A stretch of 64,000 nt of DNA from a virus. Taxonomy: Duplodnaviria; Caudoviricetes. The translations under genes were made by a program, and so were the position numbers. Below the pieces are notes generated by a model. That model worked only from the letters and a program-made list of their open reading frames with translations, did no database searches and had not been told where the DNA came from. The stretch lies in the IMG/VR virus record IMGVR_UViG_2700989005_000001, positions 32,001 through 96,000 of that record; one strand, written 5' to 3'. Below are positions 395-51,659 of this stretch, one piece after another; within the stretch, counting starts at the first letter, position 1; each line of letters opens with the position of its first letter.

Positions 395-430
395 AAAGGG
401 TTGACAGTTGTCAGCCCTTTCGCGTATCAT
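395..430 (+). promoter_or_regulatory. early promoter overlapping stem-loop (PeSL-like)
   Basis: TTGACA 401-406, TATCAT 425-430; -35 lies in 5' arm of AAAGGGTTGACA-GT-TGTCAGCCCTTT. Confidence 0.75.
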
Positions 431-460
431 ACACATATCAAATCAAGAAAGGAAAACATT

Positions 461-634
461 ATGATTGGACTATCTATTATCATCGCAGTATTCAGCGTCG
501 TGCTAATGATAGACTCACACGAGCAAATCATGTCTAAAGAATACAGAAACTTTGTCTTGATATTCAATGCCATTTGCTGTATAGTCAATCTAGCTAACAT
601 GATTGTGATTCACAAATACGGAGTAACACTATGA
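461..634 (+). CDS. small membrane protein
   Basis: ATG 461 after AGGAAAACATT; two hydrophobic segments. Confidence 0.7.
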   Translation: MIGLSIIIAVFSVVLMIDSHEQIMSKEYRNFVLIFNAICCIVNLANMIVIHKYGVTL

Positions 635-795
635 GCTTGACAATACTACTAATGACACTTCTATGCTGTGCAATACTCACTGGCATGAGTATCTTCAGCT
701 TCATTAACAAACCTAGATTCGTGAAACTAGTAATCACTGCTGTTCTAGGCTTTGTCTCGTATGTTCTACTACACGTAACGGCAGGCGCAATATGA
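631..795 (+). CDS. small membrane protein (54 aa)
   Basis: Translated by hand (MSLTILLMTLLCC...); ATGA overlaps with both neighbours. Confidence 0.65.
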   Translation: MSLTILLMTLLCCAILTGMSIFSFINKPRFVKLVITAVLGFVSYVLLHVTAGAI

Positions 796-1007
796 ATCAA
801 ACTATCAAAGCAATATGCATAGACAATACTTCAACTCGTATCGATAAACCAGAACCACCAAGCGGCATTACTCTAGGCAAAGAATATGTCGTTCACATGT
901 ATAACGTAAACGAACATACAAATAAACCACCTATGATTCGTATTACTAATGACAACAACCAACGAGCAAGCTATGTCGCTGCACGCTTTAATCTATCAAT
1001 AGGATAA
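792..1007 (+). CDS. hypothetical protein
   Basis: ATGA overlap; AICIDN...ITLGKEY...ND...RF pattern typical of small phage SH3-like proteins. Confidence 0.7.
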   Translation: MNQTIKAICIDNTSTRIDKPEPPSGITLGKEYVVHMYNVNEHTNKPPMIRITNDNNQRASYVAARFNLSIG

Positions 1008-1011
1008 ACTC

Positions 1012-1179
1012 ATGTTCGCACTATCAATCTTAATTCTGATTCTCACTACATATCTGTTTGTAACCGATAAATCAAAACGAACAGTTCCATTCGTGGCTCT
1101 GCTAATAACAACTGCGTTTAACTGTATCATTCAGTATTACCTAATTGATATTCTATCATTGAGCTTTAAACTATCGTAA
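1012..1179 (+). CDS. small membrane protein (55 aa)
   Basis: Translated by hand; AGGA RBS; hydrophobic. Confidence 0.6.
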   Translation: MFALSILILILTTYLFVTDKSKRTVPFVALLITTAFNCIIQYYLIDILSLSFKLS

Positions 1180-1295
1180 TGCAAACACTAATCAATCTAC
1201 TAAACGATATACCTATCGGCTACCTCATGCTTGTTCTATGTGCTCTAGCAGCTATAGCCGGTTGGTGCCTGAGCGATATATCAAACGATGACTAA
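1179..1295 (+). CDS. small membrane peptide (38 aa)
   Basis: TAATG overlap; one hydrophobic helix. Confidence 0.5.
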   Translation: MQTLINLLNDIPIGYLMLVLCALAAIAGWCLSDISNDD

Positions 1296-1386
1296 AAACG
1301 CTTAGAATCGCTCTCACAGCGTCTCAGAGCATGGTACAGATACGATTGTTTTTAATATATCGCACCATGCCTCGTTTAAATGCACA

Positions 1387-1495
1387 TGTGTATAAATCTG
1401 TGGATAATATGTGTATGAGATTGTGCATAAGTGTCTGAAATCTGTGTATAAAAACATGATTTAGCTGTGCATAAGTCTGTGGATAATGTGGATAA
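1387..1495 (-). repeat. array of DnaA boxes (candidate origin or DnaA-titration locus)
   Basis: TGTGNATAA (rc TTATNCACA) at 1387, 1399, 1422, 1443, 1466, 1478, 1487, plus one-mismatch TGTGTATGA at 1410; all same orientation, intergenic. Confidence 0.85.
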
Positions 1496-1602
1496 CTTTT
1501 TAGTGAAAAAATGGTGAAAGACTCATCGGCTCCTGTGTGGTACGCGGCAGTCTAAAACCTTACACCATTTATGAAAATCTAATTCGCTTCGCATCTTCTT
1601 GC

Positions 1603-1632
1603 TTGACAGCCAGCGGCATTATGTGAGAGAAT
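1603..1632 (+). promoter_or_regulatory. possible sigma70 promoter
   Basis: TTGACA 1603-1608, TG-n-GAGAAT ending 1632. Confidence 0.4.
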
Positions 1633-1665: not shown

Positions 1666-1812
1666 GTGATTACATTGGCGTTATTTTATATGAGTCGCGA
1701 CATGCAATACAGCGAGCGACCAAGTGACTTGTACCTTGGTACATGTATTTTAGACTTTGCATTAATCGCCACGATGTTCTGTGGTGTAATGATGTTCACT
1801 GGTAATTGGTAA
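1666..1812 (+). CDS. small membrane protein (48 aa)
   Basis: GGAGGT RBS, GTG start, TAATG overlap with next gene. Confidence 0.55.
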   Translation: MITLALFYMSRDMQYSERPSDLYLGTCILDFALIATMFCGVMMFTGNW

Positions 1813-2135
1813 TGTTGTTTAAGAATTACAGAGTGAATCGCCATGTTCGTGCTCGTGCTATAGAGTTATTGAATTGTGGTGAGTTGCATCGCGTGTATAC
1901 TTGTTTAGAGTTACATCGTGGTGTGAGTGACGAGATGGTTAGTTTGATTAAGCTTAAACTAAAGCATTTGCAGCGTATGTACGTACGGCAGAGTGATTTG
2001 CCGAATGATTTAGAAGATTGTTATTCTTTTATCTGTGCGTATCACCCGCCTTGTGAACATCGTAAGTTGCGTGAATATGAGCGTAAGTCGTGGTTGAAAT
2101 ACATCATAGAGAACATTAATAAGGTAAAGATATGA
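1812..2135 (+). CDS. hypothetical protein, RKxWLK paralog family
   Basis: YTC motif and C-terminal RKSWLKYI shared with ORFs at 4444-6664. Confidence 0.75.
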   Translation: MLFKNYRVNRHVRARAIELLNCGELHRVYTCLELHRGVSDEMVSLIKLKLKHLQRMYVRQSDLPNDLEDCYSFICAYHPPCEHRKLREYERKSWLKYIIENINKVKI

Positions 2136-2440
2136 AGAAGTACCGATTGGGTAATTTGTTGCGTGGTGGTTGGTCTGGTGAGTTTGCCAGTTTAGAAGAG
2201 GCGTGGGTTCAGTTAGGTTCGCGTTTTCTACTATCATTTCCGTGTGAGAAATGGGAGAAAGACATTGGTATGTCTATCAATGAAGATGGTGGTCGTACTG
2301 TGTATATGTATGTTCAAGAAGAGAACAAGTATGGTCAATTAGATTGGGCTTGTTGTAAGAACGGTGTGTTCTATATGAACGAACGAGTGCCAGTAACGGC
2401 AGACGATTACAAGCGTTGCAGTGATGTAGAATTTTTCTAA
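2132..2440 (+). CDS. hypothetical protein
   Basis: ATGA overlap with upstream gene. Confidence 0.75.
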   Translation: MKKYRLGNLLRGGWSGEFASLEEAWVQLGSRFLLSFPCEKWEKDIGMSINEDGGRTVYMYVQEENKYGQLDWACCKNGVFYMNERVPVTADDYKRCSDVEFF

Positions 2441-2450
2441 GGGTTATAAG

Positions 2451-3059
2451 ATGAAACGAATTGAAAGACATAAGAAAGTAGTAGACAAGAAAGCGATTAT
2501 GCCGAGCGGTAGTATGGTACGAGTTGAGACGTACTACAACACATGGTCTGGTTATTTGAATTGCCTTGACTCGGGTGATGGTATACGTGGTATAGAGCAA
2601 CCGACTTATATGCTAGTATCTGACAATGGTGCTTTTTACTCAGTTGAAGAAGATAAAGTAAATGGTAACAAGCAGACACAGACAAAATACGATGGTCAGT
2701 TGGTACTTGTACATGCTCGATTGAAGTTGTCAGCGAAAGATTGGGATTGGTACCCTTGTAAGTGGAAGAGTGGTCGTCTTGTATATGCGTATAAAGAAAC
2801 TGATTTTGTCGATGAAGAGCACGAGCTAGTTGTCGGTGAGATACTAGACATTTATGCCGCAAGCGATAGTACATCGTCATATGCACATGACGCGACAGTT
2901 GTTGTATCACGTCCGACACAAATTGCTGTTGAGACGTATGGTAAACTAGTAGTGTTTACGGTTGGTTCTGATACAGATGAACTCGTATCTGATTGTGGTG
3001 ATTATCGTATTGATGGTCGATATGCTGCTAGTCAGTACGATGAAGAGCTTCATTCGTAA
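2451..3059 (+). CDS. hypothetical protein
   Basis: 202-aa ORF in co-oriented run, ends at stem-loop. Confidence 0.8.
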   Translation: MKRIERHKKVVDKKAIMPSGSMVRVETYYNTWSGYLNCLDSGDGIRGIEQPTYMLVSDNGAFYSVEEDKVNGNKQTQTKYDGQLVLVHARLKLSAKDWDWYPCKWKSGRLVYAYKETDFVDEEHELVVGEILDIYAASDSTSSYAHDATVVVSRPTQIAVETYGKLVVFTVGSDTDELVSDCGDYRIDGRYAASQYDEELHS

Positions 3060-3104: not shown

Positions 3105-3128
3105 ACAGTTTTTGAATTGGAGGATAAT

Positions 3129-4043
3129 ATGACTAGAATTAAATGGACACCTGAACGTCTTAAAGAAGATGCATTGAAATACAAGACTCGTACTGAATGG
3201 TGTAAAAACTCAAGTGGAGCGTACAATGCTGCTCGAAACCGTGGTTTATTAGATGAGTGTTGTGCTCATATGAAGTCAAGTCAGAGACCAAACGGATTTT
3301 GGAATTTAGAAACACTTCAAGAAGATGCATCCAAGTATAATTCTCGTTCTGAATGGGAGAAACGGTCTAGAAGTGCATATTATGCTGCTCAAAGGCGTGG
3401 TTTATTAGATGAGTGTTGTGCTCATATGAAGCCATCGACTAAAACGTTGATTAATCGTTGTATATACCGAATCTATGCTGGCAACGAGATTTACATTGGT
3501 CTAACTTATGATGTTGATGTTCGTTTCCGTGAACATAAAACAAAAACAAAGAAAATTATCAAGTTGATTGAGCGTCATGGTATTGATAATGTGAAGTTCG
3601 AGCAAATAACTGATTACATGGACCAAGAACTCGCTCAGATTGCTGAGGCAGAACACATAGAGAGTTATAGAAACAATGATTGGGTTATTTTAAACCGTGC
3701 AAAAGCTGGGGCGTTAGGGAAAGCTAGATTGAAATGGAATTTAGAAACACTTCAAGAAGATGCATCCAAGTATAATTCTCGTTCTGAATGGGAGAAACGG
3801 TCTAGAAGTGCATATTACATCGCTCAGAAAAGAGGTCTCCTTGATGAGTGCTGTGCTCATATGACACGATTGAAAAGACCAAACGGATTTTGGAATTTAG
3901 AAACACTTAAAGAAGATGCATCCGTTTACAAGACTCGTAATGAATGGCGAACAAAATCAAGTAATGCTTATAGCGCAGCTAAGCGACTGGGATTAATTGA
4001 TGAGTGCTGCGGTCATATGCCGAAAAGAGCCAAGCGAAAATAA
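3129..4043 (+). CDS. GIY-YIG homing endonuclease (Seg-like) with four repeated flanking modules
   Basis: CIYRIYAGNEIYIGLT...RFREH GIY-YIG core; four W..E.L.EDA..Y..R.EW...S..AY..A...GL.DECC.HM repeats; GGAGG RBS before ATG 3129. Confidence 0.85.
   Translation: MTRIKWTPERLKEDALKYKTRTEWCKNSSGAYNAARNRGLLDECCAHMKSSQRPNGFWNLETLQEDASKYNSRSEWEKRSRSAYYAAQRRGLLDECCAHMKPSTKTLINRCIYRIYAGNEIYIGLTYDVDVRFREHKTKTKKIIKLIERHGIDNVKFEQITDYMDQELAQIAEAEHIESYRNNDWVILNRAKAGALGKARLKWNLETLQEDASKYNSRSEWEKRSRSAYYIAQKRGLLDECCAHMTRLKRPNGFWNLETLKEDASVYKTRNEWRTKSSNAYSAAKRLGLIDECCGHMPKRAKRK
3300..3817 (+). repeat. identical 83-bp direct repeat inside endonuclease gene
   Basis: 3300-3382 equals 3735-3817. Confidence 0.9.
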
Positions 4044-50654: not shown

Positions 50655-51659
50655 ATGCAAGCTATCATCACAAACGGTCTTTTTCGTAAAACTGAAATCA
50701 ACGGCACTTACACTCTTATCGAACGAGTTTGGAATAGTTCAGATGCCGGTGAGAAAAACGGTCGTATGAAGATTATGCTTGATGGTGCAGTACGTACTAT
50801 TCGCGTAAACAAAGAAGACGTACAGTACGTAGACGAAGCTGACGCATCACAAACAGCAGTACCTGCACTTGCACCAGTCGTTGAAGCTGAAACTGAAGAA
50901 CAAATTGCAGAGCGTATCACTGAAGCGTTCGAAGCGATGGACATCTTTACTGTCGGTGCAATCGCTGGTCACGTTAAATCGCTACTTATCTCAGGTGCAG
51001 CGGGTGTTGGTAAGACGTTCACACTTGAACGCGAGTTAAATCAAGCTCAAGAACGCGGTGATATCACATTCAAGAAAGTTGCAGGTACATGTTCTGGTAT
51101 CGGTCTGTTCACAAAACTATGGGAATGCCGTCACCCTGATTCAGTTCTTCTTCTAGATGACGTAGACGTTTTCAAAGATGAAGATCAAATGAACGTTCTA
51201 AAAGCAGCACTAGACACTGGTGAAGAGCGTTGGGTTTCATGGGCGAAAGCAAGTTCTTACTTAGAAGAGCAAGGCATCGAACAAGAATTCTTGTTTGAAG
51301 GTACAGTAATCTTTATCTCAAACAAAGACTTTGACCGTGAACTTGAAGCGAATACTAAACTTTCACCGCACTTCAGCGCACTGATTTCACGTAGCATCTA
51401 CCTTGACTTAGGTGTACATACAAAAGAAGAAATCATGGTTCGCATCAAGCAAGTTGTAGCAGCAACTACAATGCTAGAAGATCTAGGTCTAAACGCAGCA
51501 CAAATCGCTGACATGATAGCTTGGATTGAGAAACACATGCTTGAACTACGTGCTCTATCGCTTCGTACATGTTTACACATTGCTGATATGATGCTAACAT
51601 CACCGACTAAATGGGAAATGCTTGCTAAGATGACTATGCTATCTAAGAAGCGTAAATAA
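50655..51659 (+). CDS. AAA-type P-loop ATPase
   Basis: GAAGVGKT, LLLDDVD, LKAALD, FISN, A..SRS. Confidence 0.85.
   Translation: MQAIITNGLFRKTEINGTYTLIERVWNSSDAGEKNGRMKIMLDGAVRTIRVNKEDVQYVDEADASQTAVPALAPVVEAETEEQIAERITEAFEAMDIFTVGAIAGHVKSLLISGAAGVGKTFTLERELNQAQERGDITFKKVAGTCSGIGLFTKLWECRHPDSVLLLDDVDVFKDEDQMNVLKAALDTGEERWVSWAKASSYLEEQGIEQEFLFEGTVIFISNKDFDRELEANTKLSPHFSALISRSIYLDLGVHTKEEIMVRIKQVVAATTMLEDLGLNAAQIADMIAWIEKHMLELRALSLRTCLHIADMMLTSPTKWEMLAKMTMLSKKRK

Follow-up and report, generated by a model that had tools for sequence, protein, structure and literature searches.

Why should a T4-like vibriophage carry a dense cluster of binding sites for DnaA, the replication initiator of its host? 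The question is raised by a non-coding gap in the DNA analysed here ("the window", 64,000 nucleotides), which comprises bases 32,001-96,000 of the 246,964-bp phage genome IMGVR_UViG_2700989005_000001. T4-type phages are the textbook case of replication independent of the host initiator, and we know of no origin in the giant KVP40-like vibriophages, which are used in aquaculture phage work. The nearest isolated relatives of this phage are Vibrio phages phi-Grn1 (98% identity), ValKK3 and XZ1 (both 96%); KVP40 and nt-1 belong to the same T4-like vibriophage group (Straboviridae: Schizotequatrovirus, Mylasvirus) but are less closely related to it. A first-pass annotation of the window had placed seven exact and one single-mismatch DnaA box, all facing the same way, in what it called the only large non-coding gap of the early region (1296-1665), and had read them as either a DnaA-assisted phage origin or a sponge for host DnaA.

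The sites themselves were fully reproduced, including their starts, their spacings and the three perfect copies. Eight boxes, all on the minus strand, lie within 109 bp (1387-1495; Table 1): seven are exact matches to TTWTNCACA, three of them the perfect TTATCCACA, and the eighth has one mismatch (plus-strand letters TGTGTATGA). Their start-to-start spacings are 12, 11, 12, 21, 23, 12 and 9 bp, which leaves gaps of 3, 2, 3, 12, 14, 3 and 0 bp between boxes. The gap that holds them is, as had been claimed, exceptional: 1296-1665 is the sole stretch of at least 200 bp in the first 60 kb of the window that has no plus-strand open reading frame (ORF) of at least 38 aa. With 15 TTWTNCACA matches against 11.6 expected, the window is not enriched overall; what stands out is the clustering. 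Of the 37 matches in the whole genome, seven lie inside these 109 bp, and there is no second cluster. We compared this with 60 first-order Markov genomes, which had a mean of 39.9 matches and, in their densest 120 bp, 1 or 2; analytically, at least seven matches in such a stretch have a chance of ~1e-12. Against a composition-matched null, the check that had been put forward for the array, it is thus the cluster and not the total count that is exceptional.

The boxes are embedded in longer repeat units of 22-30 nt, which indicates that part of the array arose by duplication. Because duplication alone could make a cluster, the evolution of the sites is a better test than their number. BLAST recovered the array in 10 of 24 related records, which represent eight distinct phages (phi-Grn1, ValKK3, XZ1, VS1, VS2, QD01, CZ01 and nt-1) and span two genera. 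When these eight phages and the window were aligned (nine genomes), only 5 of the 64 specified box positions were variable, compared to 21 of the 37 spacer positions within the array (Fisher p = 1e-7), while 4 of the 8 N positions varied. Contigs from three further public runs carried 10, 14 and 17 differences (41 in all) over the compared stretch, and the array itself had just two of these, a change at the N position of box 1 and a spacer change. This is the pattern of a DnaA-box cluster, namely purifying selection on the specified bases with the N position left free. Conservation at the syntenic locus, the other sequence check that had been suggested, holds in the ValKK3, VS1/VS2/QD01 and nt-1/CZ01 lineages and fails in KVP40 and its clade, where the boxes are gone.

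Vibrio DnaA recognises the same box as E. coli DnaA. A search for the Bac_DnaA and Bac_DnaA_C domains at E up to 1 found none in the phage (control genomes were matched by the same search), so any binder would be host DnaA. Chromatin immunoprecipitation in E. coli, as described in PMC11317965, indicates that DnaA in vivo binds almost only box pairs 2 or 3 bp apart, and the gaps of 3, 2, 3 and 3 bp in the array agree with this spacing. The sequence evidence leaves us highly confident that selection maintains the array as a real platform, of unusual density, at which host DnaA is predicted to bind.

A second line of evidence, new in the present analysis and independent of the boxes, is the strand composition of the flanking DNA. 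We searched the whole genome, at scales of 500, 1000 and 2000 bp, for the point at which GC skew rises most from left to right. At all three scales the top step was at genome base 33,400, which is window position 1400, inside the array. The size of the step (D) at 1 kb is 0.47 here versus 0.27 for the runner-up, which is a true transcription-strand switch. In the whole records of nt-1, QD01 and KVP40 the top step is again at this locus at all three scales (1-kb step versus next best: nt-1, 0.44 versus 0.25; QD01, 0.40 versus 0.23; box-less KVP40, 0.42 versus 0.23). The skew is negative for ~1 kb leftward and strongly positive for 1.25-2.5 kb rightward, and the right flank has the strongest positive GC skew of the genome, with the right-hand 1 kb in the top 0.16% of 1-kb windows.

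The flanking genes lie on the plus strand on both sides of the step; their plus-frame translations are 40-85% identical among genomes whose DNA is beyond alignment. In this genome the GC skew at third codon positions (GC3) is -0.38 in the left flank and +0.38 in the right flank against a background of -0.06. Across five genomes, GC3 ranges from -0.26 to -0.50 and the corresponding AT skew (AT3) from +0.10 to +0.18 on the left, and GC3 from +0.25 to +0.42 and AT3 from -0.28 to -0.32 on the right. Four-fold sites of this genome behave in the same way (left, G13 C20 A66 T32; right, G32 C9 A51 T83; background skews GC4 +0.18 and AT4 -0.14). The switch tracks position and not gene family: paralogs that are split between the two sides differ in sign (pp2_168 on the left, GC3 -0.40, versus pp2_171 on the right, +0.31; phiGrn1_0284 on the left, -0.26, versus 0288 on the right, +0.39), and lineage-specific inserts on the right have GC3 of +0.48 (nt-1) and +0.54 (CZ01). 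Its polarity, with an excess of G+T on the plus strand rightward and of C+A leftward, is that expected for leading strands that diverge here. Thus, a strand-asymmetry switch with the polarity of an oriC-type origin is the top step in four of four genomes and is present at four-fold sites too.

We tentatively favor, with a rough probability of 0.4, the reading that the gap serves KVP40-like phages as an early, bidirectional replication origin, with host DnaA on the array as an accessory. DnaA binding, unwinding, R-loop formation and origin activity at the locus are steps that we infer, and they could be ordered as follows. A conserved 370-bp non-coding control region contains the eight co-oriented boxes, of which five form runs with 2-3 bp gaps that would permit cooperative DnaA oligomers. 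DnaA-ATP would occupy the array and form a head-to-tail filament, with its box-1 end toward a T-rich AT patch 20-47 bp away, and this filament may help to open the patch or keep it open. The early promoter 108 bp to the right would then transcribe into the most G-rich, R-loop-prone DNA of the genome, where an R-loop might form as in a T4-type origin, and the phage helicase loader and replisome would take over. In other systems, R-loops are favored where the non-template strand downstream of a strong promoter is strongly enriched in G, and the G excess found here would fit a T4-like R-loop origin.

Several features of the locus find a common account in such an origin: the fixed distance between patch and array, the variable distance between array and promoter, the oriC-like polarity, the skew switch, the unique gap and the loss in one clade. 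The block formed by the AT patch and the invariant ATATATCGCACC is separated from box 1 by exactly 20 bp, with no indel in the nine array-bearing genomes. The least stable local 20-mer is 1340-1359 (-19.6 kcal/mol, beyond the 99th percentile of the window at -20.2). Between array and promoter the conserved DNA contains indels between lineages, so that this distance is not fixed (108 bp here, ~94 bp in nt-1). T4 tolerates the loss of single origins. Of the two functions offered by the first-pass annotation, the origin has thus gained circumstantial support, from the sharpest strand-asymmetry switch of the genome and from the oriC-like polarity of the array toward the AT patch; nothing comparable speaks specifically for the sponge.

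The likeness to E. coli oriC is in the left half of that origin, which also has co-oriented 9-mers with 2-3 bp gaps. The phage AT patch lies on the same side and strand as the DNA unwinding element does relative to R1 (TGTGGATAA on the same strand; read from the MG1655 record), and the upward GC-skew switch at the phage locus has origin polarity. Unlike oriC, the phage locus has no IHF consensus site, no GATC cluster and no opposed right-half array; its AT patch is ~20 bp and not three 13-mers; and the array belongs to a phage that has its own replisome and no DnaA and that can, in one clade, dispense with the boxes. T4 oriE, from the same phage family, likewise has an early-type promoter next to evenly spaced direct repeats (12-nt "iterons"; described in PMC3016281). 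Those repeats, however, are inside coding repeats of gene 5 with a 24-nt period, and there is no DnaA box in the 10.5 kb around them. The G-rich non-template strand downstream of the vibriophage promoter would favor an R-loop as at the T4 origins oriF and oriG, but the DNA there is not AT-rich, unlike the unwinding elements of those two origins. DnaA does not occur in the available text of the T4 review by Kreuzer and Brister (0 occurrences; PMC3016281). KVP40 and nt-1 have asiA and, according to the available text of PMC2988021, no recognisable motA. MotA-dependent origin promoters are therefore not expected at the locus studied here. A DnaA box in an origin of the ColE1/pBR322 type can help to load helicase. 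ColE1 is also a promoter-driven R-loop origin with DnaA boxes, and the first DARS was found in the ColE1 origin (PMC5835720); it differs in having few boxes instead of eight, in a different order of promoter and boxes, and in that the plasmid uses the host replisome.

A number of observations weigh against an origin at this locus. As to its parts, the AT patch is short (only ~20 bp), the DNA directly downstream of the promoter is not AT-rich, the IHF consensus WATCAANNNNTTR has no match in the locus and there is no GATC between 373 and 3000. As to the boxes, the syntenic position has no exact match in KVP40 or phi-pp2, whose complete records contain 20 and 22 scattered matches, respectively, with no cluster and no perfect TTATCCACA. 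Since box-less KVP40 has the same skew step, the boxes are not needed for whatever causes the step. As to the step itself, it is local and could stem from divergent or antisense transcription or from codon choice, and, given the relatedness of the four genomes, their skew results do not count as four independent observations. T4 oriE, which we tried as a positive control, has no step (D at 1 kb = 0.01), and the top step nearby is a transcription-strand switch, which leaves such a step without validation as a mark of T4-type origins. Finally, the authors of the phi-Grn1 genome placed a putative origin at 51,089, the global minimum of cumulative GC skew, versus ~208,200 for the array locus in that genome (as given in PMC5107563).

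There are at least four other possibilities for the array. In the first, which we regard as somewhat unlikely, a DnaA filament acts as a transcription roadblock or insulator that halts RNA polymerase reading through from the upstream early operon; in a variant, the array tunes the adjoining early promoter and so ties early phage expression to the DnaA-ATP state of the host. The position of the array exactly between two co-directional early gene clusters and the uniform orientation of its boxes speak for such a role, as do the results of a terminator scan of 1000-2000, which found no terminator-like site, and the strong conserved promoter 108 bp downstream. DnaA blocks to elongating polymerase have been described (PMC11317965), and a phage could do without a function of this kind, in keeping with the loss in the KVP40 clade. 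Eight boxes are nevertheless many for a roadblock, and the array-promoter distances of different lineages are not whole helical turns apart, a point against direct contact with polymerase. Nor would this reading explain why the synonymous bias of the left flank is reversed or why the spacing of the AT patch is fixed.

The second possibility is the other function named in the first-pass annotation, a cis-acting sponge: hundreds of amplified copies of the eight boxes would bind most of the cellular DnaA, or promote its inactivation, and so stop host initiation with no phage protein involved. A dense array of high predicted affinity, with three perfect boxes and 2-3 bp gaps, would suit this purpose, and its function, too, could be lost as in KVP40. 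In E. coli, plasmid-borne DnaA boxes and datA titrate DnaA (PMC5835720); datA and DARS are likewise non-origin clusters of consensus and single-mismatch boxes that act on the DnaA pool (same source). However, datA requires an IHF site between its boxes, essential for datA-type hydrolysis according to PMC5835720, and the phage locus has no consensus match to one. In addition, there is a single array per genome, titration would become large only late, when the host is already doomed, and a sponge has no need of a fixed AT-patch geometry, a promoter or a skew switch. For these reasons we consider it distinctly unlikely. Equally doubtful is the broader proposal of a protein-free host-takeover device, a cis-acting DnaA sink that would rise with phage copy number, would turn off initiation of the host chromosome and might also use the captured DnaA to fire the phage origin; if it were true, the box-less KVP40 clade would be its natural loss-of-function control.

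Third, the repeats may not be used by DnaA at all and could be iterons for a phage protein of similar specificity, or a duplication kept for some other reason. Boxes within 22-30 nt repeat units are compatible with this, as is the lack of known function in all of the neighboring genes. We think it improbable because the conservation footprint is the DnaA consensus position by position, with the free fifth base included and three perfect 9-mers, and because the phage has no DnaA-like DNA-binding domain and no adjacent Rep-like gene (no Rep-like family among the ten flanking proteins). A search for partner genes found seven ORFs of at least 70 aa that are common to this genome, nt-1 and QD01 and have no tblastn match in KVP40, one of them a shadow ORF. 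Five of the remaining six were scanned (the sixth is outside the window): four had no Pfam family at E up to 0.01, and the fifth had below-cut-off matches only (ATG22, DUF981).

T4-type genomes are circularly permuted, so that a site in them has no fixed distance from the entering end, and this counts against the fourth possibility, a membrane or positional tether in which membrane-associated DnaA would anchor this point of the incoming or replicating genome. Such a tether is very improbable here: it has been proposed for T5-like phages, which carry eight conserved boxes with pairs 3 bp apart in a non-coding, non-origin region where membrane DnaA would stop injection (bioRxiv 10.1101/866236), but that model is itself still a hypothesis, and the vibriophage array is a single internal copy outside any terminal repeat and lacks the T5 inverted-repeat frame.

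The T5 case nevertheless bears on how unusual the array is. In what is described of the T5-like iss region (bioRxiv 10.1101/866236), a large conserved non-coding stretch of a lytic phage with its own replication genes holds about eight consensus or near-consensus boxes, arranged as pairs 3 bp apart. Inverted repeats with a 52-bp spacer contain the T5 boxes, which lie within the terminal repeat at a distance from the mapped origins, whereas the vibriophage array is one head-to-tail run with no such inverted repeats. We also scanned IMG/VR for three co-oriented boxes 2-3 bp apart (period 11-12 bp) and obtained at least 120 contigs. Among the matches listed, the arrays had 3 boxes in 45 contigs, 4 in 33, 5 in 12, 6 in 14, 7 in 9, 8 in 4, 9 in 2 and 11 in 1; 24 of the best 80 of these at least 120 contigs are 7 kb or shorter. 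The two largest array-bearing contigs had no match among isolated phages. The same triple-box pattern occurs in at least 120 bacterial contigs from many phyla, with no Vibrio in the best 80 of them. A premise that DnaA-box arrays are unknown for phages with their own replisome would therefore be too strong. The array is an already-known type of element, but one in a T4-like lineage and at an origin-like compositional switch. The T5 arrays, taken together with the many arrays of uncultivated viral contigs, point to recruitment or capture of host DnaA as a widespread theme in lytic phages that has received too little study. As a separate observation, BLAST of the array also touched gokushovirus records, and contigs of the size of small circular phages were seen with co-oriented arrays.

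No paper in the literature searched connects DnaA with KVP40, ValKK3, Schizotequatrovirus or nt-1 (the KVP40 genome paper was outside that scope), and broader literature searches returned nothing on DnaA boxes in T4-like phages. A comparative study of Schizotequatroviruses from 2025 does not use the terms origin of replication, GC skew or intergenic.

The central 130 bp of KVP40 and phi-pp2 can still be aligned with the array: several spacer stretches can be recognised next to mutated boxes, and conservation extends to the flanks and promoter. PVA8, TCU_VP02_YC and V05 have the same box-less sequence, and the remaining members of the clade gave no match to the array by BLAST, which was the only comparison made for them. 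The boxes were thus lost once, in the KVP40 clade. Because this clade keeps the flanks, the promoter and the skew switch without the boxes, the array is dispensable there and would be an accessory rather than a core part. A consensus-grade DnaA platform at the point where strand composition flips is a concrete and cheap place to seek an origin, and nature supplies matched controls: array-bearing ValKK3, VS1/VS2, QD01 and nt-1 versus box-less KVP40, with the same flanks and in some cases a shared laboratory host, Vibrio natriegens.

Table 1. Features of the DnaA-box locus and its flanks (window coordinates)
Feature	Position	Strand	Remarks
Left flank	401..1295	+	Five small genes; reversed synonymous-site strand bias (C>G, A>T)
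Left conserved non-coding block	1296..1339		AAAA-CGCTTAGAAT ... TCAGAGCAT-G-AC; right after the stop of the upstream gene (1295)
T-rich AT patch and invariant ATATATCGCACC	1340..1366	+	Candidate unwinding element
DnaA box 1	1387..1395	-	TTATACACA; N position varies (T/C/G); 1 mismatch in nt-1/CZ01
DnaA box 2	1399..1407	-	Perfect TTATCCACA; 3-bp gap from box 1; unchanged in 9/9 array-bearing genomes
DnaA box 3	1410..1418	-	1 mismatch, TCATACACA; 2-bp gap from box 2; varies most and is the weakest of the boxes
DnaA box 4	1422..1430	-	TTATGCACA; 3-bp gap from box 3; unchanged in 9/9
DnaA box 5	1443..1451	-	TTATACACA; 12-bp gap from box 4; variation at N position only
DnaA box 6	1466..1474	-	TTATGCACA; 14-bp gap from box 5; variation at N position only
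DnaA box 7	1478..1486	-	Perfect TTATCCACA; 3-bp gap from box 6; 1 mismatch (position 8) in VS/QD01 and nt-1 lineages
DnaA box 8	1487..1495	-	Perfect TTATCCACA; abuts box 7; 1 mismatch (position 1) in other lineages
Right conserved non-coding block	1496..1602		Invariant CTCATCGG at 1522; inverted repeat; A/T-rich stretch upstream of promoter
Sigma-70-type early promoter	1603..1632	+	TTGACA, 18-nt spacer, GAGAAT, TG before the second hexamer; 10/12 matches
Right flank	1666..3059	+	Four genes; exaggerated G>C, T>A bias

The conserved DNA on either side of the array was compared in a separate locus alignment of eight genomes that includes KVP40. The conserved columns of the left block are invariant in all eight, and the block is unique in the genome; it neither matches Rfam nor contains a terminator-like site, and its fold is not significant (z = -1.5). 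A Rfam search of 1000-2000 at E up to 1 likewise gave no match. A scan of IMG/VR with the invariant left-flank motif returned, besides the KVP40 record, matches on unexamined contigs, many of them far too small, which we took as chance. The inverted repeat inside the right block (1509-1520 / 1559-1570) has 12-nt arms that are 92% complementary and a 38-nt loop; a related hairpin is apparently present in nt-1 and not in KVP40. The TTGACA and TGTGAGA of the promoter are invariant in the eight genomes, and the first downstream gene starts at 1666. A leftward promoter was considered as a cause of the left-flank bias and was discarded, as the one weak candidate (1647-1618) is not conserved in the eight-genome alignment. 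The GATC-free stretch around the locus is ~2.6 kb long, in a genome that averages one site per 400 bp (615 sites).

On neither strand does a conserved ORF cross the array in the nine genomes compared. QD01 has an annotated coding sequence there, QD01_174 (101 aa, minus strand, 3124-3429 of the QD01 locus extract), whose frame and length are not kept in relatives, so that it is probably a spurious gene call. Elsewhere, perfect TTATCCACA pairs 12 or 22 bp apart occur inside coding genes, in QD01_190 (1009-1029; also in VS2) and in nt-1 pnuC (1018-1048; both in locus-extract coordinates). We rejected these as second arrays: they encode LVDKFVDK, a repeated VDK peptide, in QD01_190 and part of pnuC in nt-1, and are probably coincidences of coding.

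Three independent assemblies of the KVP40 clade (TCU_VP02_YC, V05 and PVA8) end, join unrelated DNA or are linearised inside the 370-bp locus, at three different positions that correspond to window ~1327-1560, and two further records end ~1 kb off. Coverage, heterogeneity or a recombination hotspot are possible causes. A 308-aa protein with a GIY-YIG domain (3117-4043; Pfam E = 4.6e-5) and weak matches to homing-endonuclease PHROGs is encoded 1.5 kb downstream of the locus. Lineage-specific genes are inserted beside the gap in phi-Grn1 (2312-2857), phi-pp2 (2464-3003), nt-1 (3363-3893) and CZ01 (3362-3886; all in coordinates of the locus extracts), and the left-flank insert of phi-pp2 is a paralog, with ~32% identity, of the 202-aa right-flank gene.

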